A stretch of 55,872 bases of DNA, the filler included, from Dugesia japonica (Eukaryota): assembly GCA_001938525.1 (NCBI GenBank). It is 5 parts of 5 records of this genome, joined end to end, with 100 filler letters (N's around TTAATTAATTAA, not from the genome) between each part and the next. Parts side by side here need not be neighbours in the genome. Positions count along the whole stretch, not along the records: positions 9,034 to 18,023 come from MQRL01537657.1; positions 18,124 to 31,090 come from MQRL01645774.1; positions 31,191 to 39,972 come from MQRL01631683.1; positions 40,073 to 55,872 come from MQRL01573997.1; 1 more part is not named here. One strand, given 5' to 3'. The translations under genes were made by a program, and so were the position numbers. The number at the start of each line of letters is the position of its first letter. Within the stretch, counting starts at the first letter, position 1. This document shows positions 9,691 to 41,965 of this stretch, piece after piece. Under the pieces are notes generated by a model. The model did no database searches. It was not told the origin of the DNA and saw nothing but the letters and a program-made list of their open reading frames with translations.

Positions 9691-11204
9691 TATTAATTAA
9701 TAAATTTAGCAAATACAAACTGACAAAATTCAATATTAAGATTTAATTAATTCAATTAAATTCTAATTATGTCATCAAGCTTGTGTTGAAGTAGTGAAAT
9801 AAATTATGTAAAACTATTAGTTGTTATTTGTAAAACGAATTACCAATTGAAGATCTACATAATAAAATATATAGAAACTATAAAAAGTATATAAATAAAA
9901 ACACAAATTTACAAAAATTTTTAAATAAAATTATAATTTTAATGGTTTTAAAAAAAGTATAATATTCAATTATAATAAAGATTAAATAAAATAAAATGAT
10001 TGTGTGAAAATAACAATTTAAAAAAAATTTTAAAAATTTTAAATATAAAAACATTATTAAAATAAATAACAAAATACAACTGATAATTTAACATTAAGAA
10101 GATTTTTAATTTAATTGAAAATTTTCATATTAAATCTAAAATTAAATTTATAATTTAAATTAACCAATAATATTATAATGAAATATTAACAACTAGTATA
10201 GTTTAAATATTTCAAAATATTATTACTTATTATCATATTAATGAAGTAGAGAATTGTCGGAAATTTTAATATTTATAAAACAACAATTTATTTTGATCGA
10301 AACCATTACTTTATTTTAATGAATTCTCAAATGGGTTGAATGGTTAAGTGCAACAATTATTCTCGCAATAATTGTAATTATGTAATTGTATAATTATTTA
10401 ATAATATATCAACAATCGTAGATATCGGACTTTCATACTTTTAACTTTGAATTGACATGGTTTACCTACAAGAAAGCTCATTTTCTTTGTTACTTCTTGT
10501 GACGATTCATCTCTTTAGCTAATATTAGTTATCATAATTAATGAATTAATGGGAAACATTAGGGTTTGTACGGAAATAGTTTTACAGTGCAAGTGCACAT
10601 TTTCGGGCACCTTTTTGATGCTAGTTTGTGTGTGTAAGTGTGTATTGAAAAAACGTTATTGGATATTTTTCTGTCCAATCTAGAACCAATTATATTGTAT
10701 AATGTATATAAAGAGAAAGTTTAATTTATATTTCATTATTTATAAAAATGACAGACTTGAAGAAAACTTTATTCCGGAAATATAAAGTGTTGAAAAAAAA
10801 TGATATTCTTTAATTATTTTAATCATATTTATTTTTTAAAAAAGAATTATGTAAATATTACTTTGATTGTTTGTTGGATTTACTTGAAGTTCACATACAG
10901 TATAATTTTTATCAATATTTTCCATCGTTTCTTTTATTATCAAATCTAAATTCATGGTAATGGAATATAAAATTTCATTTTCTTTATATATTTCATGAGT
11001 TATGCCCATGAGTTGTATAATGCATGTTAATGGAATGCTTATTCATGTTCATTGTTAGTTCGGTTTTGAAAACTCATCGAATCATTAACATCAGAACTCA
11101 AATTCATTACAATGATTTATTAAAATAAAAAACTATAGCAACACTAATTGAGGTTTTAAACAAATTAAATTCCTCTTTTAAATAGGTGATCGTTTCTTAA
11201 AATT

Positions 11205-11535
11205 TTTAAAAATAAATTTTCAGTTTATTTATTAAAATTTTAATTTCAAAATTTAAAAACAATTATTTCTTAGTCATTGGATTTTTTAAATCAGATTTTA
11301 AAATAAATTCTCAATCTATTTGTTAAAATTTAATTTCAGAATTTAAAACAAATACTNNNNNNNNNNNTGATTTTTTAATAAGATTTTTATAAATAAATTT
11401 TTTGTTTACTTATTAAAATTTAATTTCAAAATTTAAAACAATTACGTATTAGCCATTTGACTTTTTAAATCAGATTTTATAAATAAATTTTCAATTTATT
11501 TGTTAAAATTTAATTTCAAAATTTAAAACAATTAC
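11205..11535. repeat. ~90-bp tandem repeat, ~3.6 copies
   Basis: AAATAAATT...TTAAAATTTAATTTCAAAATTTAAAACAATTA recurs at about 11210, 11300, 11391 and 11481. Confidence 0.85.
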
Positions 11536-11599
11536 TTTTTTTTTATTTTATTCTGAAATGTCCGTAAGTTCCTTCATTTCATTTGAATTTCTGTTGATT

Positions 11600-12750
11600 T
11601 CTTTGCTGGTTAGTTTTTTCATATACTTTTATCTTCTACTTTTTCTTTCGAGATTTGTTTCTATCTTCCATTGATTTTTCTTCGTTCTTTGAATTCAAAA
11701 GTTTCTGCGTCTTTATTTTGTTTTTAGATCTTCTAGTTTTGCCCATAAGCTTAGCTTTCTTGCTGCTAAGATTGATCTGATACTTCGCAATTTTACCTTT
11801 TCATGGAGCTCTGTGATTTTTTGTCTATCTCTCCTGGTCGTTTCTAGGCATTTCCTTCGGCATCTATTCAATAGGATATGTAAGTCGTTTTCATATTTCT
11901 TTGTGATCGCCAAGGTTTCTGCTCCATATCTCAAGGCTGGAATGGCTATACTTTTTATAATTTGGACTTTGGTTTTGATTTTGATGTATGTTCTTTTTAG
12001 TATACTTCCCAGCATATTCAGTTTGCTTTGTTATACTTCTATTTTTGTTTTAATTTCTTTTTCATATTATCCTTTGTTTTCGATAATCTACCTGAGGTAT
12101 CTGAATTCTGATACTATTTCGATCTCTTAGTTTTCGATTTTTACCTTTTTGTTTCTTTCATCCTTTCTATTAAGCTTTTGTATTTTTTATGCTAATTTTA
12201 ATGCCCATTGGACTCATACATTTTTTTAGTCTTCCTAGATTATCATTTAGACCTTTCACTGTTTCGTCAATTAAGTACAAGTCGTCAGCATATGCTCCAT
12301 ATGCAAAGTAGATGTTTCTTTTGTCTTTGTTTTGTAATGATGTGACTGTTATAAACTTTGCTTTCTTTATTAAATGATCAAAGACGACGATGAATAAGAT
12401 TGGACAAGTATAAATCCTTGTCATACTCATGTTAACATTTTAAATTTTTCTTTACTCATGTACCTTTCTACTTCGTTGTACAATTCTTTTATTATTCTGT
12501 TCATTTTTTATGGTACTCCTATTGGTTTTAGACATTCCTACATGGTATATCTCGAGATGCTGTTGAATGCCTTTTCTCGATTGATGAACGCACATATTAC
12601 ATTTTTGTTTTTGTATCTTGCTTTTTCTTGGATTCTTCAAAGTATGTATATGCTGTTTACTGTTGATCTTTTTTCTCTGAATCCGAATTGATTATATTGT
12701 AGTGTTCTTTCAGTGTATTTTTGGAGTCTTTTTGTTTTGCCATTAATCTA
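11600..12750 (-). pseudogene. Non-LTR retrotransposon RT (RTE-like), 3' part, decayed
   Basis: QFGFREKRST, CAFIN.EKAFNS, AYADD, FRYL and IAIPALRYGAET, with many stops. Confidence 0.85.
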
Positions 12751-13019
12751 TATGTTAGATTCTCGTGGGTGAAGATATCTATCAAGGGCTTCTCTGACTC
12801 CAGATTATTTAAAAAATGCGCGTAGGTGAAACTTATATTTTATTGTAAATAATAAATATAGTAAATAACAATATAATAACTAAGACAAACACTTTATTTA
12901 AATTATGAATTTAAATTATTTATTTAAATTACTGAAGAGAATAAATTTAATAAAGAATTGATTAAAATGTCAGAGAAATATGAACATCGAATAAAATCTT
13001 TATTCTTAGCAGTTATAGG

Positions 13020-14440
13020 TCATGAATGAGTTCCATCATTTATGTACTGTGTTTCTAAAGATCATAAAACAACAATGAAAGAAAGACCTATTGTCAATGC
13101 TTCTGATACTCCATCTACTTCATTATGCAAACTTATGGCAGATTATTTAATACCATTATTAAATTTTGTTCCAGCACATTTGAAAAATAGTTGAGTTTGT
13201 TGAACGAATTAGAAGTTATGACTGGAATAATGAGGATCAATTTGGTTCATTGGATGTAACAAATCTTTATGGATCAATTCCTATTGATGTCATCCATATT
13301 GTAAGTGATTTCATTGAAAGATATAAAGAACATACAAATATTCCTGAAATCACCATAAATGGTTTCAAATTTCTTATTAATTTGTGTCTATTCTCTGACA
13401 GCATTTATTTGTCGGTGAACCACTTTTTAAACTAAAAAGTGGTCTGGCAATGGGTAACAACTTGTCTCCTATTTTAGCGATAATTTTTATGAACTTCATT
13501 GAAAATANNNNNNNNNNNNNNNNNNNNNNNNNNNNNNNNNNNNNNNNNNNNNNNNNNNNNNNNNNNNNNNNNNNNNNNNNNNNNNNNNNNNNNNNNNNNN
13601 NNNNNNNNNNNNNNNNNNNNNNNNNNNNNNNNNNNNNNNNNNNNAGTCAATCGACTTTCAGATTCCTTTTCTGGACACCTTAATCCAAAAGAAACCTGGT
13701 GAATTATTACTTTCCCAGCTGTATATGAAACCATTTCACATTCGACATATATTACCCTAGAGTAGTAATACTACCATCAGACAGAAAATTTGAATAATCA
13801 AGGGTGAAAGAATAAGAGCTGAAAGACTATCTTCAAATGAAGAAATGAGACTGACTTCCATCCGGTTGATAAAAAATAAATTTCTAAATAATGGTTATCC
13901 AAATATAATTCTATATAAACATCTATACTCAAATACAGAATTTAATAAAATCAAACAAAAGACAAAAACAGTTTTTAAATTACCTTTTATTAATGAGAAA
14001 TGTTGCCAAATCATGCAAAATATAATAACAAAGTCGAAAATAAAACACAATCCAAGAATTATATTTAAAACGCAAACAACTTTGGGCATCCAATTACAGA
14101 AACCAAGACAAACATTTTTTTGTCCCAAATGCATTTGTGATGGAAGAAATATAAGCAATAAAAAATATCACTTACAAAATAACATCCACCTTATGTAAGG
14201 ATACATATATAGGAGAATCATTCAGAACNNNNNNNNNNNNNNNNNNNNNNNNNNNNNNNNNNNNNNNNNNNNNNNNNNTCAAAACAAACATAATGTTTTA
14301 CCAGAAAATCATCATATTACATAGAAAACATTAGGAACAGGCTACATTTCTATTTTTCACAGAAAGAAACATGGATAAATTTTAATTAAAAAGATAAATC
14401 TCAGATTAATGTAGTATTCAACAATTACAATATTTGAAAA
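13020..14440 (+). mobile_element. Penelope-like element (RT + GIY-YIG), decayed
   Basis: SKDHK...RPIV, SLDVTNLY.SIP, GLAMGNNLSPILA.IFM, NGYP, and a Y.I..YIGES endonuclease motif near 14165-14225. Confidence 0.88.
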
Positions 14441-15203
14441 GGAACTTTGATGAAAAACGTTTATATCATTATCAATAAATAATATGTTTAAAATAAATGT
14501 AATTATAATAAAAACGAAAAAATATTAATTAAATATCAAAGTTTTCTTAATACGAATTTGAAAGAAACTTTAAAATGTTTTTTTATTCATAAAAATTAAT
14601 TTTATATAAAAATAATTCTTTTTCTAAATGAATTTTTAAAAAATTTATAAAAATTCATTTTAAAATAACATAAATTATATATAAGCTAAATAAAAACACT
14701 AATTATATAAACATAGTAAATAATTAAAAAAACACAAAAGAAAACTTTTCAAATTTTTTAAAAAAAATACAAAATTTAAAAGTTTTAATTATAATATATC
14801 TAAATATATAAAAGACGTTTCTATTTAATAAAAATATTTTTATGAGTTAATTTAAAATAACTTAAATCCATAATTAAAATAAACCAATAATATTTCGATA
14901 AAATCTAACGAATTGAGTAACAAAGACCTATTTCGTTGAATATATCAAGAAGCCGTCATGTTCCTGAAAAAGACTATTTCCAAAAATTTGAACGTTTTTT
15001 ACAAATACATTTTATTCTTATCGAAGCTTTTCTTTATTTTAATGAAATCTCAAATGCGATCAATAGTTAAGTTCAACAATTATTCTCGCAATAATTGATT
15101 GTAATTATAAAACTTCCGTTTACTTTTTTTGTTAGAATCTTTTCTTAAGCTTCTAATTAAAAACATTTCTTTATAATTTGATAGATATGTTTTAATTCCT
15201 TTT

Positions 15204-15930
15204 TTAATATAGTACTTTCACTTCTGCATCTCTCCATTCCTGAGGGAATGGGATGCTGCCCATCCATATTGCTTCTAGGTCTTTTTTGATTTTGTCTATG
15301 AGCCCTTTTTGACCAATGTGGAATGCATCGATCGGTATGCCTCCTTCACCGAATACCTTCCTCTTTTTGATGTTTTTTAATGTATTCCATATTTTTTCCT
15401 TTGTTGGTGAGAGGTTATTTTCGTCGTCTTGATTCTCTATTTCTCCATTTAAATAGTTGGTGTTTTTTGTTCTTTGTTTCTGAAAGTTTTTTGAACTATG
15501 TTGCAATTTTGTTGTCTTCAATTAATTGGATTGATTTTTACGTTTTTCAATTGAGCTTCTTTGACTTTGGTTTTTTCCATTTCTCTTATGGTTTTGTATG
15601 CTTTTCTTGTTTCATTTGTTTGAATCATATCTTCTACATTAATTCCTTTTTTCTGTAGCTAGTCTATTTAACATTTTTTGATAAATTTTCTTAAATCTTT
15701 GGATGTTGATTTGTACTTTTCTTTATTTGTTTCGTTTATATTATTGATGTAGTTTTGTTTGGCTTCTCATTTGTTATCATGGAGTTTTTTTTATCTCTTT
15801 GGTGTGCTCTTCTAACCAATTTCTTCGTTTTTTGGCTTTTCCTACATTTGAATTTAGACGTTTTTTCAAAGGTTTTTCTGTGTCTTTCTATCGGTAAGTC
15901 TTTCTACACTTATATTGAATAACTCTAGTA
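15204..15930 (-). pseudogene. Non-LTR retrotransposon ORF2 upstream of RT, decayed
   Basis: SPT.E.I...LK.....K..G.GGIP and PQEWRDA.V..LY, the pre-RT motifs of LINE ORF2. Confidence 0.75.
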
Positions 15931-16009
15931 ATTTTCTATCAGTTTCGTCAGCTACAATATTAATTCTACATTTTCTTCTTTTCTATTCTTCTCGAGCTTG
16001 ATGTTTTGT

Positions 16010-18023
16010 AGCTTGTACATTCAAAATTTGCTCAAGTGAAGTATAGATTGAACATTGTAACTTCGTGGATCAAACCATATGGACTTATTAGAACTGCAAT
16101 AAGTCCTTGTCAATCCTGATGGATTTCAGGAAGCTGAACTTAGAACCATATGTTACCAGATTTCTAATAGTTTTGCATAATTACAAATCCATCATTTTCT
16201 TTATATTTTCGACCGATTTCTTATACAAAATGTTGTTAAATAGTTTGCAGTAATTTCCCTCAAGCTTAGTATTATATACTGCTCTTAATGCAGTGTTTAT
16301 TTCAATGTAATTTTAAAATATACGAGCTTGATTAAATCTTATTGCTCTATGGACCAATTTAACTTAGAATCCTTATCTTATTTACATTTATAACAGTATT
16401 GTTGCTACTAGTAAATCATTAAAATAATCANGAATTTCTTCTGGAATAATCATTTCCACCTTCAAAGTGTAAATAGAACAACGCATCCATATCCATTGTC
16501 TTACATTCTTGTAATAGTTATTCTAAATCAGTGTGTACCCACTCAAAGTTTTTATATAGTAATTTTTTACTAAGAGGTAATTCATACAGATTAATAATAT
16601 AAACTTTTAAAAATCAGTGTTTTCACTTGTTGTGCTTGTTAATAAATGTCACTACATCCTTTATCTTCATCCGCGATTTCATCCCATTTTGATGGCATTT
16701 CTGTTGTTTCAACGTGTACTTGAAAATTGGTTGCATAATTATATGGTAATATCCCTTTTGACGTTGTTATAAACTTATATGAATCTATAAACTTTATCGT
16801 ACCAAATTTAGTTTTATGTACTAATAAGCACAAAGACCTTTCTAATATTGATGGAATACAATTGAGACTCCATTGCTGGAATTTGCTTATTCCATATTTT
16901 AAGATCTGATGCAAATCATACCCTCTTAAATTATAAAATACAACCGGTACTTGCGTTTTTACACTTCTGCTCAAATTGCCTTTAGAGCATGCTGCGCCCA
17001 TATACTGATCAGTAAAGTGATCATGATCATGAACTGTTGCATACAATGTTTTCTTGCACATATTACAATTAGTGTCTGCAGCGATCTTGATATTATAATT
17101 TTCTTATTCTAGTTTCTTATGTAGAATGGAGTCACTAAATTCTGATCGATATCTTGTATCTCCTAAAGTAAATCATATATACAGGTATCTGCAATGAATT
17201 GTTTGTATGTTATTTTGTTGGTAAAGTTGTTTACTTAAAACATTCCTGATGAAACCAGTATATGCTTCTGAAATTGAACTTAAACTCTGAGCCTTTCTCT
17301 GCAAGCATATTATATAGAGTTTTACCAGTTTGAATTTTTTCAAAAATTAACACATGTTTCTGAAATGCTAATTTATACTTAAATACATTTAAGTAATTTG
17401 AGTATCAATATAAACAGATTTATACACCATCTAGTTTAACATCACGATTCATTAATCTGTTCAAATTTATTACAGCTGCGTAATGGTCTTTATTTCCATT
17501 CTCTAGCAACAAATATATTTTTTCCCATCGACCACTTTAGACTTGTGAATAATATCTTAATACTTAATCTAAATATTCTTGAAAACATCTTCACCGACAT
17601 CTTGTACTTTATTTGCATTCCACACAAAACATTGATTGTATATCAAGGATTTTTTTTCAAATTTTCTTTTATTATCCAACCTCATTGGTTTATTGAACTC
17701 TAGCTCCGACATGTATTTTTGATAAATTATTGCTCTTTTTCTATGATTTTCATCATCCATATTCTTTTAATTATTACTAAGATGGTGTAAATAAAGCATT
17801 TATTATCCTTATTCTTGATACTAACAATTGCCATTTTCTTTTTCAGATTTGCTAAGGCTGATATATAATTGTAACTACTTATAGTTTTAACCTTGATGAT
17901 TTTGAATTTCACTTCTAAAATCTTGAAATTGTTTTGGTTAATTGCTTTTTTCCCTCTTGGAAAAAATTATCACTTAATTGGATGGCTCTATTTGATATTC
18001 TGAAAATATCTTCATCTTCATCA
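16010..18023 (-). pseudogene. Second, heavily decayed Polinton-type pPolB
   Basis: IVSIKNKDNKCF, HYAAVINLNRL, C..C...VHDHDHFTDQYMGAAC...NL, VPVVFYNLRGYD, KFIDS, KGILPY and KLFNN...K..ENIR. Confidence 0.85.
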
Positions 18024-18123
18024 NNNNNNNNNNNNNNNNNNNNNNNNNNNNNNNNNNNNNNNNNNNNTTAATTAATTAANNNNNNNNNNNNNNNNNNNNN
18101 NNNNNNNNNNNNNNNNNNNNNNN

Positions 18124-18208
18124 TCAATAATGAATTAATTTCAATAATGAATTAATTTCAATAATGAATTAATTTCAATAATGAATTAATTTCAATATTG
18201 AAATTATT
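18124..18208. repeat. 17-bp tandem repeat x5
   Basis: Four perfect copies of TCAATAATGAATTAATT plus one diverged copy. Confidence 0.9.
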
Positions 18209-18209: not shown

Positions 18210-19517
18210 TTACATTAATCTAACAAACAATCAAACTGTTTGCCCTTGATCATCACTGAAATGCAGGCTTTCCCTTGCATTTTATCATACGAAATTTCTA
18301 CATTCTGTTTCTCTTAAATTGTTCCTATCAATTCTACTTTGTTAACTTCAGTATCATTGAAACTTTCTCTTTTTAAAAATCTGTAAACCTTTTCTCTAAC
18401 TTCGCTCATCTCATTCATTTCTCGGCCTCCTGAGGATAATCAATCGGTATCTTGTTTAATGATTGGCTCCGACAAACTCCTCTACCGATGAAACCCTGTC
18501 TGTTGGGTGTTTTCTTCTTGAATCTTCATTTTCTATTATGCTCTCAGAAAATATCTCTTCATTGTCATCATCATCCTCTTCTCGAATGGCATGAATTTGT
18601 TTGGTCCGCTTTTAGAATGGTAACTTCTATCTCTGGTCTTGGTTTATTAATGCTCGAATAACATTCTTCCGCTCTGTGACCTGGTCTTTTACATCTACCG
18701 ATTACAATTTATGTGTACATCCTTCTGACATGACCAATCTTACCACAACCAAAACATTTTGGTGGTTTCTTGTCTGGACAATTTCTACTTAAATGCCCTT
18801 TCTTGTAACAAGTCCAATATTCCAAATGATAATTTTTTGGACACTCTTTTTGTATGCCCATAACTCTGGCATGTCAAACACTGTGGCACTGTTCTTATCG
18901 TAGCTCTTTCGATATTTTGTCTCCTTTCTCCGGAATGTTTCCCACGTGTTACACCTGCGTAACTCTACTACATGAATAGGTTCTCTTTCTATTTTTTCAA
19001 CCAATGATAGCGTTTCTTTTATATCTTCTACTTTCTCCAATTTTCGCATGATAATCTCTTCTTCTGCTTTTTTACTATTTGCACAAATTATTAGCATTTT
19101 TGATAAGAGTTTTTCTTTCGTAAACTCTCCATTTGCTAAAAATTTATCGACCAAATCTTCCACTTTTTTAAAGAACACATCAAGTTCTTCACAACTTCGA
19201 CGATAGCTTATAATTTTCTGTAAATCTTTTATTACGTCTCTCTTGCTCTCAAAAGCTAATCGCAATCTCTCTCAATATTCGTCAACCTTCTTCAATGTCT
19301 TCACATATGCTTCCATTAAATCTTCATTCAGCATACATGTTACTCAACGTTCCTGATCTTTCTTAACAACGATGTTCTTTGCTTCAAAGTATATTTCAGA
19401 CCGTTTGATAAACTTATCTAGATCATCGCATCTGCAAAAAATATTTTTTGCAACAATCCCTCTGTGATTGCATCGGTGTTTACCGCTGCCACCATGTTAG
19501 GAGAGTTTGGAAAACTC
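18210..19517 (-). mobile_element. Ty3/Gypsy gag-protease fragment
   Basis: Homologous to the gag at 43869-45250 (FCR.DD..KF, YFEAKNI); CCHC knuckles such as CFGCGKIGHVRR. Confidence 0.8.
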
Positions 19518-20060: not shown

Positions 20061-21719
20061 TAGTCTTTTATATAATCATTTATATGTTTATTGTTATTAT
20101 TTATTTATATGTTATTGTTTTATCTGTTTAAAAGTCAGTATATTTATATTTTGAAAATATTCATTAATTAAAAAAAAATAAACATAAATTAAAAAAAATA
20201 AATTTAAACTAAAAACTCTATAGGAGTGCAAAAATAATTTAATTGATAATAACTAATAAATAATTAATAATTTAATAATAATAATTAATTTGATTTTTTA
20301 AATATGTATCTAAATTTAATGGCTACTGAAACTTCTAAATACCATGTAATTATATTGTTAAAGTAATTTTTTATTCATTATTTATTTAGCGTTTAAAATT
20401 ATTGAGGGTCTAAAAAAGAACTCAAAGCTCATCAGCCATTCAAGATTTTTGTGTTATAAAAATAAAGACAACAAAAAGAGCATTTTATTAAGATGCCAAC
20501 AATACCCTCACAGTCTGCACTGTAAAGGCATTACTTGCCAAAGAAGACAATAGTTTCTCATTTGAGGGTCAACACATCGCTCATGGAATGTCTTTAAGGA
20601 AATTCATCTCAAAGTTATTATCAAAATTAATTTCAACGTCAAATTATTTAATTGTCGAAATCATATTCGCACCCCTTATTTGATCTGTGTGGTTTATAAA
20701 TTGTAGCTCTGGGGTAATAAATGTGATATAAATTTCAAAGAATCTGGTTTCAAATATTCGTTTTTCACCAACTTCAAGGTGGTTTTCATTTCTTAACATT
20801 ATTCCATTTCCATTAAAGAAATGGAATCAAATTAATGCATTTGAATAACTTTAAATTATTAAACATAGAATGCAAGTTTAAGATGAAGTGGAAATCACCT
20901 AGATTATAACCAACAATAAAAAAAGACTTATTCAAATGTTGTTCAAATGGCATTCTAGTATAGTTCGAAAAAATAATAATTGTTTATCGCATTGATTGAA
21001 GCTGTTATTTACAGTTCAAATTTTCAATTGAATAGATTAGAAAACACCCAATGATTCCTCAAAATTTTAGTTAAAAATATAGTACATATAAGCTTTGCGA
21101 ATTACTATACCAACTTAAGATTCTCCAATAATAACTGATGAACTCAGAATTAAATTATTACAAGCCAGCAAACACAACAAGAATAGTAATAGGAAAAGTA
21201 ATGCAAATCAAATTTTTCGTAAGGCATCTAAAAAAGTCATTGATATGAAAAATACAAAGAAATTAACACAAATGATTTCATGTGTCATATAAATTTGTAT
21301 CTCTTCTCATTTCTATTCAGATAGAATTTCTATCGGTGATCAACTTTTTAAACCAAAGCCGATTATTTTTCTTCCGTTGGGTACTAGACTCAACAAATTT
21401 GTTAAATGGGTTCGAAAATGATTTTAAATTGCTCTATATTAATTTTATCTGTTACTATTCAGTATTTATTGATTTTAATAATTTATTGATTTAGGATGTT
21501 CTGTCTTTTAGTATGTAGCTACAATATTGTAGAACTAATATAATTACAAAAGTCTATAAATAGAGTAATAGATGTGAAAATATCTAATAAACAAATATAA
21601 CACTGTTTAATCATTTATTTTTGGTGTATGAAGATCTACCAAAGTTCTTATAACTTATTGGATTAATTTTATTTTAAACAAAAGCTGCTTCGCAGAGTCC
21701 CGATGATTTTTAATTTTCC

Positions 21720-22575
21720 AAAAACGACTGCAACATAATAATGCAGTTTATTAATTTAAACGGGAACTACTTCACTGAAAGACCAGAGTCTCTAGAACAT
21801 AGTTGGAAACTATAAAATTAAAGGCTAATGAACCGTTTAAGAGTATTTATATAGATATCAGTAGACCATTCCAAGAAACCTTAGGAAAAATATATCTGTA
21901 TCATAATAGATAAATTTAGCAGATAAATATGCTTAACAGCCCTAGTTAAACAAGATGATGAATCAATAAAGAAAACGATTGTGGATAAATGGATACTGAG
22001 ATTTAGTGCCTCAAAAGAGATACATATAGATTGTGGGAAGATCTTCGAATCGAAAGTTATCAAAGAGATGACAGATTACATGAATATAACAATTTGCTTT
22101 TCAAGTCCATATTCTCATAATACAAACGGAATAGTAGAGCGGCAATTCAGAACAATCAGAGATTACATCAATTCAACATTAAAAGATAAAAAGTGGACAG
22201 AGTTAATACCAGAAATTGAATATACACTAAATGCAACAAGCCAGAAGACTTTAGGGATAAATCCAGCAGAGATGGTATTCGGTAAGCAGATACATAGAGA
22301 AAGATGGTTCAATAATGGAGAAAAGAATGAAGAATCCGGAGAGTTGACACCAACTTGTTTCGTATATGAAAAAATCAAATACGAAACAATTGAATATGTT
22401 TAAAAACCTTGCAAAAAAAAGAATAAAGAATCCGGAGAGTTGACACCAACAGAGAGATATTTTCAAGTTGGAGACAAGGTTCTAATCAAGGTAGAAAACA
22501 GATCAAAAGACAAAGAAATATATACAGGTCCTTACAAGGTGATAAAACAGATTCATAAAAGACGATATCTGGTAA
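21720..22575 (+). mobile_element. Ty3/Gypsy integrase fragment
   Basis: EPF..IYIDI, IIDKFSR, IHIDCG..FES, SSPYSHNTNG.VER and a GPY tail. Internal ~97-bp offset duplication (AAGAATCCGGAGAGTTGACACCAAC twice). Confidence 0.88.
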
Positions 22576-23038
22576 ACTTTATAATTTTTATATATATTAT
22601 ATTAAAATGTCTTTTTTGAAAAATTCAAATATTATTGTAAAAAGTGTACTTAACAGATTTTTAAAATATAAAATATTTTTAAACGAAATTTATTTAAATA
22701 ATTTCTACATATTATATTAGGCAAAATATATAAAAGTATAAAAATTATTTTATGAAATTATGTTTATAAACAAAATAAAGATATATGAAAGTAAAAATAT
22801 TTTGTAGAATTAAAATAAATATTTTTAAAATATTTTATTAAAAATTTATCATATTATTTGTTTGAACACTATGAATTATTCATCTTTTTTTACTTTAATC
22901 AAAAATCTTGTGATAATAAATAAAAATTTATGGAGAGTTCTGTAGTTAGGAATTTAACTAATAATATTAATAATTGTTAGATGTAATATTTAAACATATT
23001 TGTTTAAATATTATTGATTTATTTAATTTTAAAAAACT

Positions 23039-24719: not shown

Positions 24720-27700
24720 TCTTGAAAATCAAGCAAATATCATGAAAGACGAACCCGAAAAAAGGAATGCGAGTCTGCACTTGAATTCCGAGTCAACGGC
24801 TCCATTCCGAAGATCTGGATTAAATTAATCGTAGGATTTTACTAGGCAGATCAATCTAGAATTTGGATTTCCTAGACTAGACTTAATTTAAAAAATTCAG
24901 CCTACCTAGATAAAACGCAAACAAAAGGATTAATGAAAAATATCTGAATTTCGAGTTAAGAGTAAAAACATTCTCCACTATATATTTGAAAACAAAAGAT
25001 CACCAGTGGAAATATCAAGAGTTTTTATCCCGAATGGATTAAGAAGCGAAAAGTTAAAAGAATCCTTTGAACTCAAACCAAAGTTAAATGACGAAAAACG
25101 TCGAGATTCGGCTGCAAAGCTTGATAAATTTGTTGCAAAAAGTAATTTTAATGCTGTCAAAGGAATCTATGCAAGTGTAGTTAAAAAATCCGCTTTCGAA
25201 CCCAAATATAATAAAATGGGAAGTAATTACAAAGAACAATATTTTCATCACAAAGAAAATATTCTATTATTTCTAGAAAACCGACAAACGATTTAATGAT
25301 TGGTAATAATATGCAAAAAATAAAAGATATAAATGAAGACCAAAGAAGAGATTTACCAAAACATTCTCTGAAATATGTAACAACAAATTTTTATAATAGA
25401 TATCACAATAAAGCTCCTCCCAAAGTAGAATTCCTACAACCTGGTGCTTGTTTTTTCTGTGGTGAAATCAACCATAGAAGAATAAACTGTCCTTTAAAAA
25501 TAGGTGTTTATATGCGGTGAAGAAGTCCACGCTTTTAGAAATTGTACATTATTACCAAGAGGCCACAATAATCAAAGAATATTATGTATACCAGAACAAG
25601 AGAGAGAGAAGAATCTTTAAATAGAAACTCACTAATTGATTTTGAACATGATGCAATAAATTCTTTTATAATAATTTAAAAAATGTCCAGGTTGCATTAA
25701 AAAATCTAGATGTTGATAGAAGGTCTGATGTTAAACTGATATATCAAAAAAGTGATGGTAGAAATTGAAGCACAGTAAATTGTAATGAAAATTTTGTAGA
25801 TATGTTATGAAATTCTGGGGTGTCTGTCTCAGTGATGAGTGCAGAAATTTGGAAAAAGATTGATTCACCAAAAATTCATTTTTCAAATGTAATGGTAGCT
25901 GGAGTATTTTCTTAAAAAAGTGAAAAATGCATTGNAAAAACCAGAATTAAATTATTTTGGAATAGAAGCATATAGAGATAGAAATAACTATTGTTAAATA
26001 CATTTGTCCAAATTTTTTTCCTGATATCGATATGATGAAAGCGTTTGGAATGTGAATAAAAGAGATCAATTTCATAGATTCAAAAGATGTTATATGCAAA
26101 AATAAGAAACATAATAATAAAAAAATGAATATACTCAAGCTAAATGTCATCAATAGAATAATTGAATTACTTGATAAATATGACCACATAATTATGAATT
26201 CAAAATTCGATGTTGAGTTAACAAATATGACGATTCATAACATAGAAACTAAAAAAGAACCCGTATTGATCAATCCAAGAAGACAACCTATGCATTTAGA
26301 AGGTGAGATAGATGAATTAATACAAAATCTATTATTAGCAATTATTATATAACCTGATCGAAGTCCATGGAATTCTTCATTTGTGATTGTTCCAAAAAAA
26401 AGATGGTTCTATCAGAATGTGTCTTGATTTTAGGAAATTGAATTCAGCAACTGAAAAATAGTCATTTCTGTTCCAGATATAAATTTGTTACTGGATACTC
26501 TAAATGACTTTATGTTTTCCTCATCAATCAATCTTGGATTTACTTGGATTTAAATCGATCTTTACCAAATTAAAATAACCGAGAAGTCTAAATAAAAACA
26601 GCTTTCGGGAAAAAAATGGAACAATTTTGTTTAATTCGCATGCCGTTCGGCTTATGTAACATTCCTGAAACATTTCAAGAATTAATGCATAATCCTTTAA
26701 ACACGATGTTATTTAAAATAATAGCTTCGATCAAAATTTTGTTTTTTTTTTGGTATTTGATAACAATTCGATATTTCGACTTTGTCTTCTTCAGTAATAA
26801 TTATTTACTCGAGTACTCGTTTATTTTGATGACATTTTAATTTTTGGTCAGAACCAAGAAATTCATGATAAACATTTACAAAATGTGTTGGAACTAATTG
26901 AGCAATCTGATCTCAAGATTTATCTTGAAAACTGTATATTAAGTGTATCAAAACTCAAATTTCTTAGTTATACAATCAGTTCTAAAGGTGTTGAAAGAAA
27001 TGATGATATGATTACTAAAGAAAAAGCCTGTTCATCTAAAATGTGCAACCAAAATTCAAACTTTCTTGGAATTGACAAATTACTACCGTAGGTTTATAAA
27101 AGATTACGCAACAATTTCCATTATATGAAGCAATAACCGGATCAAAAAAGTTTTAGAGTGGACAGAAGAATGTGATATCAGCTTTAAACTACTGAAATAA
27201 AAATTATGCAGTTTGTCCAATCTTGGAATTTTCAAATCCTCAAAGCAAAATGATATTAGACATAGACGCAAGTTTCAATGCAATTGGTGCTGAGTCAATT
27301 GTTGAGAGATGTGGAAAGTGTTCATGCATCTCGTAATTTGAATGATCATGAAAAGATTTATTATGTAACCAGAAAAAACTATTGGCGTTGCACAAATTTA
27401 TGATTAATTTCAAGCATTATCTTTACGGAAAAAAGTTCATAGTCAGAACTTACAATAAGGCATAATGAAATCTATTTCACAGTTTAAGACGTGGATTAAA
27501 AACCTAGCAGAATTTGATTTTGGTCTTCAATTTCGTAAAGGCATTGATAATGGGAGTGCTGATGGATTATCAAAAATAGGAGAAAGTTTATGCGCTCAAT
27601 GTTTGTCGCCTCATCACGATGCAAAACGTAAAAAATCTGGAGTTAGAAGAATAAATACTGTAGAAAGTTCAAATTATGATAAAGAAAGTATCATAAAAAT

Positions 27701-28460
27701 TCAAAGCAATGATCAAATTACCAAAGAGATAATTGAATATATTTAAGAACAAAGTTTACCAGTTAGTAAAAATTTAAATAAAAGTAAATAAATCAGAGAT
27801 ATTGATAAATTCGTTATGAAGAATATATATTGCTGATTGTTGATAAAAATACGAAGAGGATAATTTTAGCAGGTAAATCAGTGGTTGATTTAATAAATTA
27901 CATTCATGAATAATTATGTCACTTGGGAACGAATAAATTAAATGACTATATTCACATAACTTATTTTTAGCCAGATATTTTCAAAACAATTGAACATGAG
28001 TTTATAAATGCTTAATTCGCAATCAACAAAAAACATATACATGCAAAACTAATGAACTTTTACTACTTGGAACCAAATTTTGAGCGTTAGAACAGATTAT
28101 CATTGATGTAGCTAATTTTAATGAATCAAAGTTAAAGAAGTACATTTTAGTCATTATAGATCGATATCACGAACTTGTTAGTCTGTCAGCCAAGACGGAA
28201 AATCTGTAATTGAATCAATAAAAGAGAATTGGATATATAGATGCGGCAAGCCCAAATCCATACTGACAGATAGAGGCAAGATATTTGGAAAGAAAACTGA
28301 TGAAAGTAATGACTAAGAAATTTGGAATTAACCATGAATTTTCGTCTCCATACCAACAGCAATCAAATAGGTTGGCAGAAAAAACGACCAGGACTCTACG
28401 TGATATGATTGTCACTACAATGAAAAGTTTGTTACAAAGAATGATATGAAGGACAACAAG
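24720..28460 (+). mobile_element. Ty3/Gypsy LTR retrotransposon internal region (gag-PR-RT-RH-IN), decayed
   Basis: CFFCGEINHRRINC; protease NSGVSVSVMS; RT SPWNS, RMCLDFRKLN, RMPFGLCN.P.TFQ, YFDDILIF; RNase H DIDASF.AIGA, ADGLS; integrase H..LCHLG, ILTDRG, SPYQQQSN..AE. Confidence 0.92.
26764..26800 (-). ncRNA. Minimal hammerhead motif inserted in Gypsy RT
   Basis: CTGAAGA-AGACAAAGTC-GAAA-TA-TC-GAATTG, with helix I partly decayed. Confidence 0.55.
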
Positions 28461-33985: not shown

Positions 33986-36586
33986 TTTACCGGAATAATT
34001 AATTTGATGTTGCCCAGAGTCGTGTTTTTAATATTAATGTGTTTAAATGAAATCTTAAAACAACTAGATTTTCGATTAAATATTTCAACTTCAAAATTTT
34101 GTTCATTATAAACAATATATTTTCTCATAAAAACCGAAATAAACATTACACAACTTTAATATTTTAAACTTTAAATGAAAAATTTCGGTGGATAGATTTT
34201 TAATTGTAAAAGTAGTTTAAAATCATCTCAGAATTATTTTTTTTAATTAATTCAAGCAACTAATATTGAGTTGAAATTAAATTGCTTAATATGAAAAAAA
34301 TCACAAAGTATTCTATCTGATTATTACACGTTCAACTATTAGTTTGCATATAATATTTTTTATTTCAACAAAACCCGTTCTAACAGACAGTTTCAGAAAT
34401 TCAGTGATTGGAAAGATTCAATAATTTCTAAGCATTGGTAGTATGTAAATTGAAATTTCAACGAATTTGATTTAGAAATTAGACTGTGTTTGGGAACGAT
34501 TAAATGATTATCCTCTACATTGAAAGACATTGATTCTATTTATTTGAAACGAATTTTAAATATTCAAGTTTAAATTTAAATTAATTGAAGAGGTAAATTA
34601 TGTATAATAACAAGGATATTTTGCATGAACATTATATATTACGATATATATTACGAAAAAGTTACAAAAACTAATGTTCAACAGTTTTATTGTTTTAAAA
34701 AAATAATTTCATTTATGATTGATGTATTTTTCCATACGAGAAAACAAATTTTCAAAACATATTTGCCAAAGCGAATTAAGTATTACTGAAACATGAAAGT
34801 TGCAAGCATCAACCGAATCTTTTGGTTTCGAAAATCGTTGACAACACAATTTGATCTTCACATATGGTAATAAAATGAAATCATTAGAAGCCAAATCAAC
34901 ATGGCGGCTGACCCATCAATTCGATGTTTTGAGAAGTCAAAATGCTACTTGTTTACACTAATGTGTGTGAGCTCGTATTGTCATTATGAAAAACGACAAC
35001 GATCCGCCATCACACGTTGTGTTATCTTATTTTCCAATGACCTCTGGCAAGGAAATGGTTGTGTACCATTCAGAGTTAACCGTTCTATCAGTCCCTAAAG
35101 TCACGATTGTCGTGTCCAGTTTTACCGAAAATACAGGGCTATATTTTCAACAAAACAAATAATTTACGGTAAAAAAATTATTAAAGAAAATCTCTTTGTT
35201 ATTTGGATTTAATAAAAGTTTTTTAATAGAAATCATTTTATATAAATCATTTAATAATTTTGATAAATTTAACATTACTTTATGACATGGACAATATTTA
35301 GGCTGAAAATTGAGAATGGCGCCTAATTTAATAATCAATATAAAAAATGTTTGTGGAAATTTATTGATGAAGATAAATGTTGAAATTAATTATTATAATT
35401 TTTTTGTTATGACAATATTAAATAAAAATTAATTTTACAATTTCCCACAATGATGATTATATTGAAATTAATATTGAATCGATTAAAACAAAATATTGAA
35501 GTTACAAATTCATTTTAAATTGCTTTTTGACAACAAGCAAACTTTGACAATAAAATTACAACACTAATTATTTTTAAATATTCCTGTAAAAATAAATTAT
35601 TTCTAAGAATGCCCTATGTTATTATGTAGCAAGAAACACCAATAATTGATTAAATTTTCAGTATTTCTGAAGAAATTTTTTAATGAATTTGAAAATCGTT
35701 TTATTTCAGTTATCGAGATTTAATGTTAAAAAATTAAATCTTTTTACATATAATTAGAAGCNAATTCTATCTAATTGGATCATTTTAAAAACTGAAACAG
35801 TACAATCATTTAATAATTATTATATTTTCAAAAATTCCAATGTAAGCATCATGCAAATAGAATTTACTGCTTATTATTAATTTATTATAAACTATATATT
35901 TAGTACCATAGAAATAGTTATCAATTAAGAAATTTCAATTTGAAACTATGGATATCTATTATTTACTTTAATAAATTTTAATNNNNNNNNNNNNNNNNNN
36001 NNNNNNNNNNNNNNNNNNNNNNNNNNNNNNNNNNNNNNNNNNNNNNNNNNNNNNNNNNNNNNNNNNATTTTTAAATAAAAACCATTAATTTAAAATAGTG
36101 ATTCATGATGTGTTTTGAACAATAAAAGCAAATTCGATTGTATAACCAAGATTTAATGAGGGAGGGAGACAATTTCGAGGAAAAAATTACTTTTAATAGA
36201 CAGCAAAAATGACATTTTCTTATTAAAATCGGTTGAAATACAATAAAAAAATCAATCAAAAAATTAAGTCTTCAGTTGAATTTGCGGAATTCCGAGAGAA
36301 ACTCGTTGAAAGAAATGCCAATATATCTTAGTAAAATAAAATATTTCACAAGTAACCATAATTTTTAATCAATATTACGAATTTTTATTAAAGCTGAAAA
36401 GAAAGTAAGTATATCCATAATATTTGAACAAATGATCCATATTTCAGAATATTAAAATTATTTTACAATTGCAATTATTGATATTATAATTGTTGGANNN
36501 NNNNNNNNNNNNNNNNNNNNNNNNNNNNNNNNNNNNNNNNAAAATAAAAGCTTCGATCAAAATTGTGTTCTTTTCGTATTTGATAA

Positions 36587-36623
36587 CAATTCGATATTTC
36601 GACCTTGCCTACGTCAGGAATTG
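36587..36623 (-). ncRNA. Minimal hammerhead motif (one core change)
   Basis: CAATTC-CTGACGT-AGGCAAGGTC-GAAA-TA-TC-GAATTG. Confidence 0.55.
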
Positions 36624-37389
36624 ACTTATTCTCGAGAATTAAAATAGTTCAAGAAATGAGAAACCCTAAGCCTTTGTATTTTTAAATCGAAAAATTTTAA
36701 GAATACAAGTTCAAACAAAAAATTTCGACAGTATTCTATATCTGATAAATTCAAAATGTCACTAATCAAATCTTCTGAATTTTCAACATTTGTAATCTAA
36801 CTCAAAAATATAATGATTGCAGTCTTAAAGTTGGAAAATAAAGTGCGAGTAAAGTGCGATTGGTAGTCGTATAAACTTTATGTTCATATGGTGCTTCCTC
36901 AGCTTGAATGTCTCAGTTTCTTGTACTACTTGATAATATATAAATTCCAAAATCTCACCTATCAATCTACGGTAATTAAAAATTAATTTCTTCTATCGTT
37001 CTAATCCGATATACAGTTATCATTTATCAATGTTATTGAAAAATGATTTCACAACTTCTATCACTATTTTTTAAACATTTTTTTGTTAATAAAGCTCGAC
37101 AGTTTACTTCAATTCCTTATCACATTTTTTACCTAGGTTTCATTTTCTTACCGTTTCTCTAATATTTTTATTCTTTGCTAGAAATATTTTCATTTTTTAA
37201 GTTTTACTCAAAAAATCCAGGTATTTATTTTAATAATAATTAATAAAAAATATTTAATTTTCAATTTATTAATTAATCTAAACAATAAATAAATATAATA
37301 TTTATTTATTTATTACAATCAAGGTTAAATATAATAAATTAATTATATTGTTTGTGTTTAACAAAAAACTTATAAAAAGTTAGGTTTTC

Positions 37390-37795
37390 AAAAATAGAAA
37401 GAAAGTCATTGTCCACGAAGGAAATTGCTTCAATCAAAGCATACAAAGATTTTGCATTTACAAATCGGGAAATTGGTATGAAATGGGGCAAACCACACAA
37501 TATTATCAACGATTACTTCAAATTAAAGGAGAAATATGCGAAAAATTGAAAACCGCAAGTTAATAAGTATACTTGAGAACTGAACACCAAATTTTCCGTA
37601 ATGCTGTCAATAATCAAATGAGTACATAAAAAATAAATGCCCGAATGAAGTTACCAATTACCACAAGATGCACACAACAAATATTTGCATCTAAATCCAC
37701 TAACAGTTTGTTGTGAAAGAGTTTGGAAACCAAAATTGACTGTCATACATTATGAGGCTCGTTTGGCTTGTGCACAAAGACATATGGCTTATAAA
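37390..37795 (+). pseudogene. Tc1/Tc3-like transposase N-terminal fragment
   Basis: RKSLSTKEIASIKAYKD...NREI, then KPKLT..H..ARLA.A..HM. Confidence 0.7.
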
Positions 37796-38067
37796 AATTC
37801 ATTTTGTTACAAGTAAATTTATTTTACGAATATTCTTTAAGAGAATAATTGGAAAAGATTTTCAATGTGAATAAAGTTAGTTAAAAATTTGAGCAGACAA
37901 TATTTTACAAGCCACATACATTCACATTTTAAATAATTTTCAATTTTATAAAGAAATATCATACATCATACAACTAATTACCAATAATTTACCTTTCAAA
38001 TTTTAATAGAATATAAACAATTATGTAACAATGTTCTAATATTGATCAAATCTATCAAAAAGTCAGC

Positions 38068-38105
38068 ATATTCCTGAAGAAGACAATTATCGAAAATTTG
38101 AATAT
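38068..38105 (+). ncRNA. Minimal type I hammerhead ribozyme motif
   Basis: ATATTC-CTGAAGA-AGACAATTATC-GAAA-AT-TT-GAATAT, with intact core and perfect helix I. Confidence 0.65.
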
Positions 38106-38469
38106 CTATAAAACAACAATTTAATTTCGTCGAAGTCATTACTTTATTTTAATGAAATTGTCGTAAAAATAGATATGGTTTGACTTTAAAAAAAAACCTT
38201 AAGTTTTCATTTTTAGAATGGTTATACATTATTCTTATTTGTATTTATGTATATATTTGTAAGAATTGATTATTCAAAATAATTAAGTTATTACAGGCAT
38301 GGTCAACACGCGGCCCACCGTAATTTTTTTCTGAAACTATTAATGAATGAAAATTGAGGGTTCTTTGATAAAATGTGAAAATTTCAATATATGATTTAAA
38401 TGTAAGAAATTTTATTAAAATCATTAGTTTTTTAGTATGGTGTTACATATTGGTTAAATTCGTGACTGG

Positions 38470-39512
38470 CAAAGAAAATATCCGGCACTGTATTCAATAC
38501 GAATATGATTGTGGTTCTAATGCAACACAAGCTGCCAAAAAATTGTACAATTTATGAAAATTTCCTCAGCAATAAACAGGCTAGAACTTGGTTTAAACGG
38601 TTCCAGATTGCTAACACCTCTTTTGAAGATCGTCTAAGACCTATTCGTAAAATTTCTTTGGACAACAATGCATTACGAAACTTGGTTTAAGAAGATATGA
38701 AGTTGACCATCGAAGAAATAGCAATCACTTTTAGAGTTAGTTGGCCAACTGTACAAAACATCTCGATCTGATTGGTAAAGTCCAAAGAACTGGTGTTTAT
38801 CTACCTTATGANTTGACACCGAATCAGAAAGAAACGCGTCTCTCGATTTTCAATTCATTACTCATTTACCATGAATTTAAGACTTTTTGGAAACGAATAG
38901 TGATAAATGGGTGTTGTATGAAAACCCTAAAAGAAAAAGGTAACGATTATCTCTAGGTCAAGTATCAGTACCTACCATCAAATCAGGGTTGTGCCAGAAG
39001 AAGGCTCTATTTTCCATATGATGGGAATACAGGGCAATAATTCATTTAGAAATGTTAAAGATGGATGAGACCATTAATGCAGGCATTTACTGCGAACAAT
39101 TAAATCGTTCTCAAAATTTATTGGCAAGCATTAGTTAACTAAGAAAGGATGATATTTTACCAAGACAACGCAAAACTCTATGCAGCAAAGACTATGGAAA
39201 ATTGACACAACTTGAAATGCGAGCTCATATTCCCACTATTGTGTACCATCTGATTATTATTTGTTTCGATCACTGTTCACTTTTTTTCAGGAAAATCATT
39301 CTCGAACATAAATGCCGTGAAATCGGAACTTGAGCAGTTTTTTGCTGAAAAACCTTGATTATTCTGAAAATATTCGAAGTTTGGTAGAAAGATACCAAAT
39401 GGTTGTGCAATCTGGTGTAAATTATATAATTGATTAACCTTTGTTATTTATAATAAAAATACGTTTTCATGTTTTATATTTTTCGGAAATTTTCAAATAA
39501 TACCCACAATAT
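38470..39512 (+). mobile_element. mariner transposon remnant
   Basis: IRHC..YEY..GSNA.QA, WFKRF, KWVLYEN, QDNA, PSDYYLFRSL, ending YIID* at 39437, with a TIR-like end near 39484-39512. Many lesions. Confidence 0.9.
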
Positions 39513-40099
39513 ATAAATATTTAAAAGTAAAACAAATGTTAATGAAATAAACAGTTTAACAAAAAGTGAAATGAAATTCATTTCTGTTATCTCAGGTGAA
39601 ATCAAATCACAATATTTTAACCATTAATATATTCATACAATTAATTTCATAAAAATAGATTTGTACTTTTGGAATCAATTTTAAGGAAATTTGTTTTCGT
39701 TTAATAATTTTCTTTTTATTAAAAATAGAAACACATTATTAAATAAGATCTACTAGTGAATAATATTTTTAAAAATCAATTTGCTTATATATTCTGCAAT
39801 TTATGATTAGAATATATTTTTTGGTAATTCTTTGATTTTGTAAAGAGCTTTTAGTAGCTTTAACAGAAGCAGTTGAAAATAAACAAAAATACATAAACAA
39901 ATGCATTATAGGATTTATTAAGAAGTAATTTCTTTATAACCGGATACTCAAAAATGAAAAATAAATTACTTTNNNNNNNNNNNNNNNNNNNNNNNNNNNN
40001 NNNNNNNNNNNNNNNNTTAATTAATTAANNNNNNNNNNNNNNNNNNNNNNNNNNNNNNNNNNNNNNNNNNNNAAATAAAAGTAACATTTCTGTAAAACC

Positions 40100-41552
40100 T
40101 TTAAGTAGAAAGTTGAGCAGGCAGTTTGTTTTTAAGTTAACTACTGATGGCAAAGTAAAAGACGGCGACAAAATTTTCTGCGTTCACTGCAATAAGCAGT
40201 TTGCTTTCCGTGGTTCAAATACCTTGCTAGCGTATCACCTTCAACAAAAATATCCAGTGCAGCATCATAAAGTTGAGGCAATTGACCAGAAAAAAAGTTC
40301 TCAAAAGAAAACAATAACCAGTTTCTTGTTGTTTAAGTCAAACAATACTATAAACGAAAAAGTTTCTACCAACTTGTAATTTAGTATTGCCCAGTTGATT
40401 GCTAGCTCAGGACGTTCACTGGCTATTGTGGAAGATGATGGTCTACAAACTGTATTACGTATTGCTCTCCAAAATCAGACTTATACTTTACCCAGTCGCC
40501 GTTCAATTGATAATCTCATCTATGAGATGTACAACGCGAAGCTGAATGAGCTTAAAATGGTTATTGCAAATGTCCTTTGTAACCCACTCACTACAAATCT
40601 TTGGACATCAAAAAACAATGAATTGTATTGTGGTTTAACAAGACACGGGATCTCTTCCGATTGTTAACTTATTTCAGTAACATTAGGTTACCTAGTTGTT
40701 GAAGAACGGCATAGGAAAGAATCGTAGACATTGATTCTTTGCCAAAGTTGTAAATGGCTATGGTCTTAGATCCGCGTTATAAGAAACATAACTGTCTGAG
40801 AAGAGAGAAACGAGAAGCAGTGTGGATATTATTGTCATATGAATTCAAAGCCTTTTACGATAAAAGCTACTGAGCTGAATGTCCAATAATCGTAGAAAAA
40901 AATCAGCGTTGATGAGACAATACAACGAGTGGCAAAGAAACGAAAATTGACTTTGATGTTGTGAGATTCTGGATCGTAGTCATCAGCTGATGAATTGGAT
41001 GGAGTAATCAGTGGCAGAGGTGGAACTGATGCGGTATCAAGAAGAACCTCCAATACCAGAAACAGAAGATTCTCTCAACTGGTGTGTGTTAATTCAATAT
41101 GGGTTTCCTATTTTCAGTAGTTTTGTGCAGATAATTATTTGTGTACCGGCTAAATCTGTTCCCTGCGGAAAAATTTTTAGTTCATCTGGTACATAAAATG
41201 TGATCTTATCCACTTCCAAAAGATGTCAACGCTCTGGTTTGTCTACATGACTGGCTAAATTGATTACTAATAATTCCATAGTAATAAATGAATTTATGTT
41301 CTTCAAACGAATGTAAATTTTAAAAAAGTCACTATAAATTTTAGTTTTTTAGTTTTTGAATTAAAAAGTGTGAAAAATAATCTGTCATTTAAGGCACTGC
41401 TACAATTTAATTTTACAAATTTATCGTGCTATCGCATATGATGACTTTTATGAGTGCATTATGTTTGTATAATTAATCAAAATTATTCGATTAATCGATT
41501 AAAATTGTTTTTGATTAATCGAACAAGAAAGTTTCATTCAGTACCAGCCCTA
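40100..41552 (+). mobile_element. hAT transposon remnant with BED zinc finger, internally deleted
   Basis: CVHC...LAYHL, IVEDDG, LTT(N)LWTS and a dimerisation motif VPAKSVPC..IFSSSG; subterminal CGATTAATCG repeats; terminal CAGCCCTA ending at 41552. Confidence 0.88.
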
Positions 41553-41927
41553 ATTTATTTTATTTTTGATATTATTGATATTGCCAATTTTCGTTATTCG
41601 GAAAGAAATCTTGGAACAATTTTTTCCCTGCTTCAAGAGACTCTGAATTCATTAACATAACTACTTATAGATTTGATTGAGAGAAGCGTGAAATTCTAAG
41701 GACTGCTCGGGTGGAATATTCCCTCAGTACGCCACTGATCTGCTGTCTCATTCAAAGCAGCAAATTAATTTCTGAATAATTGACAATAAGATTTGTATTA
41801 CGTTTTATTGTTATATACCCAAAAATATATGTTTGAAAGGTATTATTGAGGTTATTTATATTTATCACTTTGCTTAAATATTTCATTGAAATAATTGCTT
41901 GCATTAAACCGAATTGTTGTTTTATAG

Positions 41928-41965
41928 ATATTCGAATTTTCGACTATTGTCTTCTTCAAGAATAT
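41928..41965 (-). ncRNA. Minimal hammerhead motif (one core change)
   Basis: ATATTC-TTGAAGA-AGACAATAGTC-GAAA-AT-TC-GAATAT. Confidence 0.6.

Follow-up and report, generated by a model that had tools for sequence, protein, structure and literature searches.

A 55,872-nt stretch of Dugesia japonica DNA (hereafter the window; five parts of assembly GCA_001938525.1 joined end to end) carries a family of dispersed short repeats, which are very probably truncated pieces of the pseudo-long terminal repeat (pLTR) of a Penelope-like retrotransposon (Penelope-like element, PLE), with a minimal hammerhead ribozyme predicted to depend on dimer formation or on a protein. The window had 25.8% GC and many gaps of N, and consisted mainly of broken mobile DNA. 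All six hammerhead motifs listed in the initial annotation were present at the coordinates and on the strands given there and formed one homologous family of 37-38 nt; the second one was found near 14959-14994(+) but its limits had to be adjusted, the best parse being 14958-14995. A seventh, head-less copy with leader and open reading frame (ORF) start was recognized at 42517-42621(-), its hammerhead position falling inside an N gap (42622-42721). Copies are named by their hammerhead edge (10235, 14958, 26800, 36623, 38068, 41965 and 42621), and core positions follow hammerhead numbering.

Membership in the family was evaluated with leave-one-out profiles. Motif and 45-nt tail together recovered each of the six held-out copies (E 4.6e-15 to 0.0024; best non-copy E 0.36), while the 38-nt motif alone recovered four of them at E<0.01 (10235 and 14959 reaching E 0.81 and 0.35, respectively). 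Profile matches at 46572-46613, 36720-36742 and 4283-4315 were dismissed as copies (E about 1). No hammerhead family was matched in an Rfam scan of the window, and its three unrelated weak matches (U6, snoRNA and leader, E 3.4-3.8) were attributed to chance. The exact motif pattern gave no match in viral contigs.

The Penelope-like element and its pseudo-LTR

The link to a PLE at 13.0-14.4 kb, proposed in the initial annotation, held: copy 14958 is the 3' end of that element, located 520 nt 3' of its ORF stop and on the same strand. A read-through of 13647-14195 yielded four protein matches among 216 candidates, the best being P0001 (843 amino acids, 76% identical). P0001 matched RVT_1 at E 7e-07 and GIY-YIG at E 0.00028, just under the cut-off; P0002 passed both cut-offs. 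P0001 aligned to 12928-14408 (tblastn) with 64-79% identity (E 5e-90 and 7e-69). The element thus retains a 5'-truncated, broken ORF at 12928-14437(+), covering reverse transcriptase (RT), thumb, Cys linker and GIY-YIG regions, matching P0001 residues 335-837 and interrupted by stops, frameshifts and two N gaps before a final stop at 14435-14437. Its identity comes from the homolog search, as Pfam matched none of the seven single pieces and none of the two longer read-through pieces when the PLE fragments were scanned alone.

Downstream of the stop lies the AT-rich 3' untranslated region (UTR) of the PLE (14438-14957(+)), the upstream part of the pLTR, with a CCAAT 74 nt before helix I. It is followed by the decayed minimal hammerhead of the element's own pLTR (14958-14995(+), H17 at 14989) and by 14996-15112(+), which contains a 52-nt leader counted from the cut site, an in-frame ATG at 15042 and the PLE ORF start with tail, the insertion ending near 15112. 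A second PLE ORF fragment, internally deleted (P0001 residues 200-308 and 478-508), was located at 20986-21358(+), and no hammerhead was found behind it. Minus-strand fragments resembling the RT of a long interspersed element (LINE) flank the PLE at 11716-12839 and 15115-15900, as if it had been inserted in a LINE, the match being weak (RVT_1 E 0.022).

The common downstream tail described in the initial annotation was real, and is now identified as the PLE 5' leader and first codons. The segment MRSIVKFNNYSRNN at 15054-15095 corresponds to the beginning of P0001 (MRSMAKSNNYSRNN). The tails of 10235, 36623 and 42621 likewise matched the P0001 N-terminus, so that an ORF start was present in four of the seven copies. 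ORF-start scores in these four ranged from 47 to 59, whereas none of 478 background windows scored above 34. The three short copies scored 15-21 because they end at the first ATG or 7 nt past it. Two classes of 3' ends were accordingly distinguished, three copies ending at the ATG or 7 nt past it and four about 55-75 nt into the ORF. The distance from the cut site to the in-frame ATG was 52 nt in three copies; in a fourth it was 47 nt.

Upstream similarity was more restricted. Over the first 100 nt upstream, two of 15 copy pairs were significantly alike (10235/14958, p 0.003; 14958/38068, p 0.01), and the upstream 100 nt of copies 26800, 36623 and 41965 were not significantly similar to those of any other copy. 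Copy 10235 forms a solo pLTR (10135-10393(+)) with a 3' UTR remnant that may reach 10020, the hammerhead at 10235-10272, the leader and an ORF start from 10319. Copy 36623 (36450-36627(-)), of an AUAU subfamily, comprises the hammerhead (36587-36623), the leader, an N gap and the ORF start (36497-36453). Copy 38068 (37998-38158(+)) holds a 3' UTR remnant, the hammerhead (38068-38105), the leader and an ATG at 38152, and ends 7 nt into the ORF. Two further copies are short: 26800 (26714-26800(-)), with hammerhead and leader, ends just before the ATG, and 41965 (41880-41965(-)) runs from helix I through hammerhead and leader to 7 nt into the ORF. Among the resolved copies, none has its start downstream of the hammerhead.

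The ORF-start tails, together with the place of copy 14958 behind the PLE stop, identify the repeat unit on sequence grounds as the PLE pLTR, made of 3' UTR, hammerhead, leader and ORF start; insertions of this pLTR in truncated form gave rise to the solo copies. Copy 26800 splits a Ty3/Gypsy RT gene, the halves of which align to adjoining Ty3 RT residues 170-205 (weak, E 0.34) and 210-268 (E 6e-07), and therefore arrived by insertion. A 7-bp target-site duplication at this copy would leave two residues more than the Ty3 RT spacing and is not asserted, and a 10-bp candidate at copy 41965 left 12 bases unexplained. No convincing duplication was obtained at the three further copies tried (10235, 36623 and 38068).

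Anatomy and decay of the hammerhead

Each of the six headed copies displayed the same layout, with a 6-nt helix I, a core box of the CUGANGA type, an extra base, a 3-bp helix II closed by a 3-4-nt loop, the GAAA box, two bases, UH and helix I'. This parse supports the minimal type I, dimer-type layout of the initial annotation, as well as its palindromic helix III (AAUU in four copies and AUAU in two, always without loop) and its predicted cut of copy 38068, where H17 is at 38099. The extra A between A9 and 10.1 and the G10.1-C11.1 pair were found in all six copies.

All six copies are decayed and none is intact. Core changes occurred in four of them, in line with the earlier statement that most copies are core-mutated, and the remaining two had helix defects. 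The full core was thus kept in two copies, while two carried one change and two carried two or three. Copy 10235 had C3>A, A9>U and A13>G; copy 14958 had G8>A and G12>A along with only one of three helix II pairs. The single core changes were A9>U in copy 36623 and C3>U in copy 41965. Among the copies with intact core, 26800 formed four of six helix I pairs and 38068 two of three helix II pairs (one mismatch). A strict hammerhead descriptor was passed by none of the six.

Predicted hammerhead folds were weak (-0.6 to -4.8 kcal/mol in four copies, +3.2 in copy 26800). Free co-folding of the natural copies produced the helix III dimer in none, other pairings being favoured, as is expected for a 4-bp A-U helix; the dimer step was not supported by this calculation. 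In the AAUU subfamily, the family majority letter at 38089 turns helix II plus loop (38082-38091(+)) into a perfect 10-nt palindrome. Helix II could therefore serve as a second site of pairing between two RNAs, and co-folding of copies 38068 and 10235 favoured such pairing.

The covariation of helix I noted initially was retained in part: pairing was kept despite sequence changes, but with six related sequences the statistics were only suggestive. In helix I, 94.4% of cells were paired and four of six pairs changed on both sides; for helices I and II together, pairs held in 88.9% of cells and four of nine changed on both sides. The covariation score (0.370 versus 0.174+/-0.062 in shuffles) was equalled by 1 of 500 shuffles of these six related rows. 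When the helix III pairs were added, the score was reached by none of 500 shuffles and the pair count by 12, again over six related rows. One of the double changes (pair 2.1-1.1, copy 10235) belongs to the copy with three core changes. The helix I covariation would be explained by the existence of several subfamilies (AAUU, AUAU and differing helix I).

Copies beyond the window and neighbouring sequence

A search across sequencing runs listed no RNA run as a carrier and a best DNA share of 0.43, and was given no weight. Four public runs were mapped to 36541-38350 (7,590 and 7,841 contigs; 768 and 32 RNA reads). The results obtained from them are based on 40 of 252 differences, 23 of 815 loose ends and 15 of 22 joints, with no helix I position among them. 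Summed contig depth was about 250,000-350,000 on the two hammerheads of this region, versus about 10-15 on unique flanks; the hammerhead family is high copy, although summed depth is not usable as a copy number. Majority letters of the other genomic copies restored A9 of copy 36623 (position 36611; over 99% of contig depth and 316 of 326 reads in run X22). In copy 38068 they restored the helix II pair (position 38089; 95% of depth and 183 of 217 reads). In X22, 56 RNA reads continued past 38158 into the ORF start, and 41 extended before 38049 into 3' UTR-like sequence such as that at 14912-14940. Solo copy 38068 is thereby tied to the PLE on both sides.

RNA reads ran into unlike sequence in 91-97% of cases and covered both directions, a pattern that speaks against an active role and fits passenger transcription of dispersed copies. 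No RNA-supported joint, as a circle would give, was encountered among the joints listed for the two RNA runs, one of which was poly(A)-selected.

The same class of motif was displayed by distant relatives of the element, in 74 metagenome loci encoding PLE proteins of 23-36% identity (from the best 80 of 307 matches). A minimal-hammerhead descriptor gave 25 matches in 22 of the 74 loci, all sense to the ORF, with none antisense and none in 10 shuffles, and the extra base was present in 24 of the 25. When a covariance model was derived solely from the six copies of the window, it matched these loci 13 times at E<=2, with 12 matches sense and 10 located at descriptor matches. Several loci repeat one family, so that only about seven independent motifs are represented. 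Six loci (L017, L018, L043, L052, L053 and L067) harbored U3-A8 core-variant hammerheads behind their PLE ORFs, and in several of these the RT ORF was preceded by another ORF, whose start lay 50-120 nt behind a hammerhead.

Other mobile sequence filled much of the window. Co-oriented ORFs at 416-8861(-), including a protein-primed type B polymerase (PF03175, E 5.5e-19) with N-terminal C2H2 fingers, resembled a Polinton/Maverick-type element with several N gaps and adjoining ORFs without Pfam match; 16642-17966(-) may be a second decayed piece of this kind. Gypsy-like fragments (zinc knuckle, RT and integrase) were distributed over 9176-9862, 18273-19501, 21927-22616, 25227-28446 and 43740-45923, with 86% identity between the oppositely oriented segments 9176-9389 and 45470-45683. 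Around copies 38068 and 41965, transposase remnants were detected at 37376-37813, 38466-38953 and 40029-41193(+), Tc1/mariner-like (weak, E 0.03-0.04) and hAT (Dimer_Tnp_hAT E 4e-06). Protein kinase pieces in several frames at 42936-43668(-) and 46852-47412(-) (Pkinase E 5.4e-17 for 43283-43492) could be host exons or a pseudogene, and the U6 match at 42935-43033, which overlaps one of them, is likely due to chance. An AT-rich tandem repeat with a 90-bp period and 3.7 copies occupied 11204-11537.

Origin of the copies and role of the hammerhead

PLE minimal hammerheads are described in PMC4209133 (Cervera and De la Pena 2014) with an extra base, G10.1-C11.1 and a palindrome, in several families per genome and mostly as solo copies, inactive as monomer and of low activity as dimer. 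The window motifs resemble these metazoan ones in being type I, with a base after A9, the G10.1-C11.1 pair and a loop-less palindromic 15.2-16.2, as well as in their several families, mostly solo occurrence and sense-strand location in the pLTR. They differ from those of Schistosoma mansoni in the same paper by a shorter helix II (3 bp versus 7-8 bp) and a longer helix I (6 bp versus 4-5 bp); the palindromes of helix III, AAUU and AUAU, are a further difference.

A pLTR reaching into the first ORF codons, two classes of 3' ends and solo pLTRs are shared with Pen2a of Adineta vaga (PMC3846280), whose pLTR takes in the first 12 codons, or 22 with tail, and also occurs solo, and with the PAc Poseidon element of Anolis (PMC11167929). 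In Anolis PAc the ORF begins inside the hammerhead, whereas the first in-frame ATG is found here 47-52 nt behind the cut. Inverted back-to-back copies are known in PLEs, and six X21 reads carried two hammerheads back to back in opposite orientation. Hammerheads are called typical of pLTRs, and their function unclear, by Craig et al. 2021 (PMC8557442). P0001 resembles the Hydra clade of that paper (PLEs with a C-terminal endonuclease, EN+) by DKT for DKG and a CxCX5C linker; the clade is said there to be without the CCHH endonuclease motif, while P0001, judged by eye, seems to keep CxxC and H-x4-H in its endonuclease, the two histidines being spaced as in a CCHH motif. The extra base, the G10.1-C11.1 pair, the palindrome, the predominance of solo copies and the extension of the pLTR into the ORF, tail optional, have all been published before as PLE features.

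The PLE's own RT and GIY-YIG endonuclease likely copied pLTR pieces into the genome. PLE reverse transcription has been reported to start from two internal sites downstream of the ORF start, on uncut RNA (PMC11167929), and the two 3'-end classes and the copies intact through the cut site would fit an optional PLE tail and two RT starts. Reverse transcription may have begun either close to the first ATG or at a second such site, 55-75 nt inside the ORF, and would have run back through the uncut hammerhead, often halting early and leaving short solo copies. The two 4-nt palindromes would pair between two ribozymes to form helix III, and the ancestral motif may have been a dimer- or protein-assisted ribozyme trimming PLE RNA. 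In Anolis, the hammerhead cut only with PLE protein, and its cut site likewise showed no RNA-seq ends (PMC11167929). Because of these data and of the low dimer and absent monomer activity published in PMC4209133, the window copies are taken as dead, truncated insertions, which would be inert relics transcribed only as passengers.

Several observations weigh against assigning the repeats to truncated PLE pLTRs. The window PLE ORF is devoid of residues 1-334 and no intact full-length element exists in the window; only a truncated ORF being available, the linkage of the hammerhead to a full ORF relies on the first 14-20 codons. The two 3'-end classes are about 50-65 nt apart, versus a published 30-40-bp tail (PMC11167929 and PMC3846280). 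The 5' ends of three of the six copies lie no more than about 5 nt from helix I, which is more regular than would be expected of random truncation. No pile-up of read ends was seen at the predicted cut among the ends listed for the two RNA runs, although the libraries were fragmented, which makes this absence weak either way and could hide a cut. As for covariation, 33 of 500 shuffles had at least as many doubly changed pairs as the real alignment, which leaves it statistically suggestive only.

The fixed starts at helix I would also fit a PLE-derived independent unit, resembling a short interspersed element or a retrozyme, which would start at the hammerhead and be copied in trans, possibly via circular RNA, and would account for the short copies, above all the AUAU ones. 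The loose ends behind 36627 were heterogeneous (agreement 0.45-0.47; 171 reads, 190 and 194 contigs), in one contig 38158 was followed, after 30 letters, by 38074, making a short tandem, and animal retrozymes have been proposed to come from PLE pLTRs (bioRxiv 2026.07.22.740005). However, many subfamilies with diverged AT-rich UTRs also yield heterogeneous loose ends, and the copies contain no sequence of their own beyond the leader and ORF start of the PLE. The tandem joint was the only one among the joints listed, and these joints (15 of 22) had single-copy depth (6-21) and no RNA support, although short-read contigs could hide arrays elsewhere; in the window, a tandem repeat search returned no repeat overlapping any copy. 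Non-LTR retrozymes (Cervera and De la Pena 2020, PMC7229834; bioRxiv 2026.07.22.740005) share with the window copies a type I hammerhead, a short non-coding repeat and a tie to PLEs, but they are 150-450-bp tandem repeats with canonical hammerheads, expressed as circles (PMC7229834), whereas the copies are dispersed and minimal, include a PLE ORF start and, in the window, form no tandem arrays. The retrozyme hammerhead also has a capped helix III, while helix III lacks a loop here and helix II has 3 bp. An independent unit is thus quite improbable, and the separate non-autonomous retroelement or retrozyme family of the initial annotation is not upheld, since the tails code for the PLE ORF start, one copy is the PLE 3' end and no copy in the window lies in a tandem array.

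It is hardly credible, on the other hand, that the hammerhead shape is a by-product of an AT-rich repeat with inverted arms, its covariation arising from chance and shared ancestry. The lack of an Rfam hammerhead match, the failure of all six copies on the strict descriptor, the weak predicted folds and the shuffled pair counts would agree with it. Yet the family majority letters restore core and helix II, the diagnostic extra base and palindrome are as in PMC4209133, and motifs of this class are confined to the sense strand of unrelated PLEs (25 sense, none antisense, none in 10 shuffles). Truncated PLE pLTRs remain the preferred explanation for the repeats.

A more speculative proposal, rated unlikely, concerns transcription of the PLE itself, which might start at the first bases of helix I. 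Its mRNA would then open with the hammerhead, and the abundant 80-170-bp solo copies would be run-off cDNAs, whose synthesis was primed at the internal RT site within the 5' pLTR and terminated at the 5' end of the RNA. The ribozyme, cutting about 50 nt ahead of the ATG, would serve as a self-decapping switch. A CCAAT was found 71-87 nt upstream in three longer copies (one homologous event, with a chance occurrence of about 1 per kb), and an initiator-like motif overlapped helix I in two of six copies. Diverged AT-rich UTRs would give the same loose ends, hence the low rating. A literature search, which left most subscription papers outside its reach, returned no paper on transcription start at helix I of PLEs.

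D. japonica adds to the genomes in which decayed PLE minimal hammerheads are numerous, and what had been read as a new non-autonomous ribozyme element is corrected to Penelope element ends. If true, a start at helix I would give a testable role to the hammerheads of endonuclease-bearing PLEs, called unclear in the literature. Raw RNA data are available for this abundant family, whose 5' boundaries cluster at helix I and whose 3' boundaries fall at two places. Should these boundaries correspond to a transcription start and two RT starts, the in vivo role of PLE hammerheads (PMC8557442 and PMC11167929) would become testable in this planarian.

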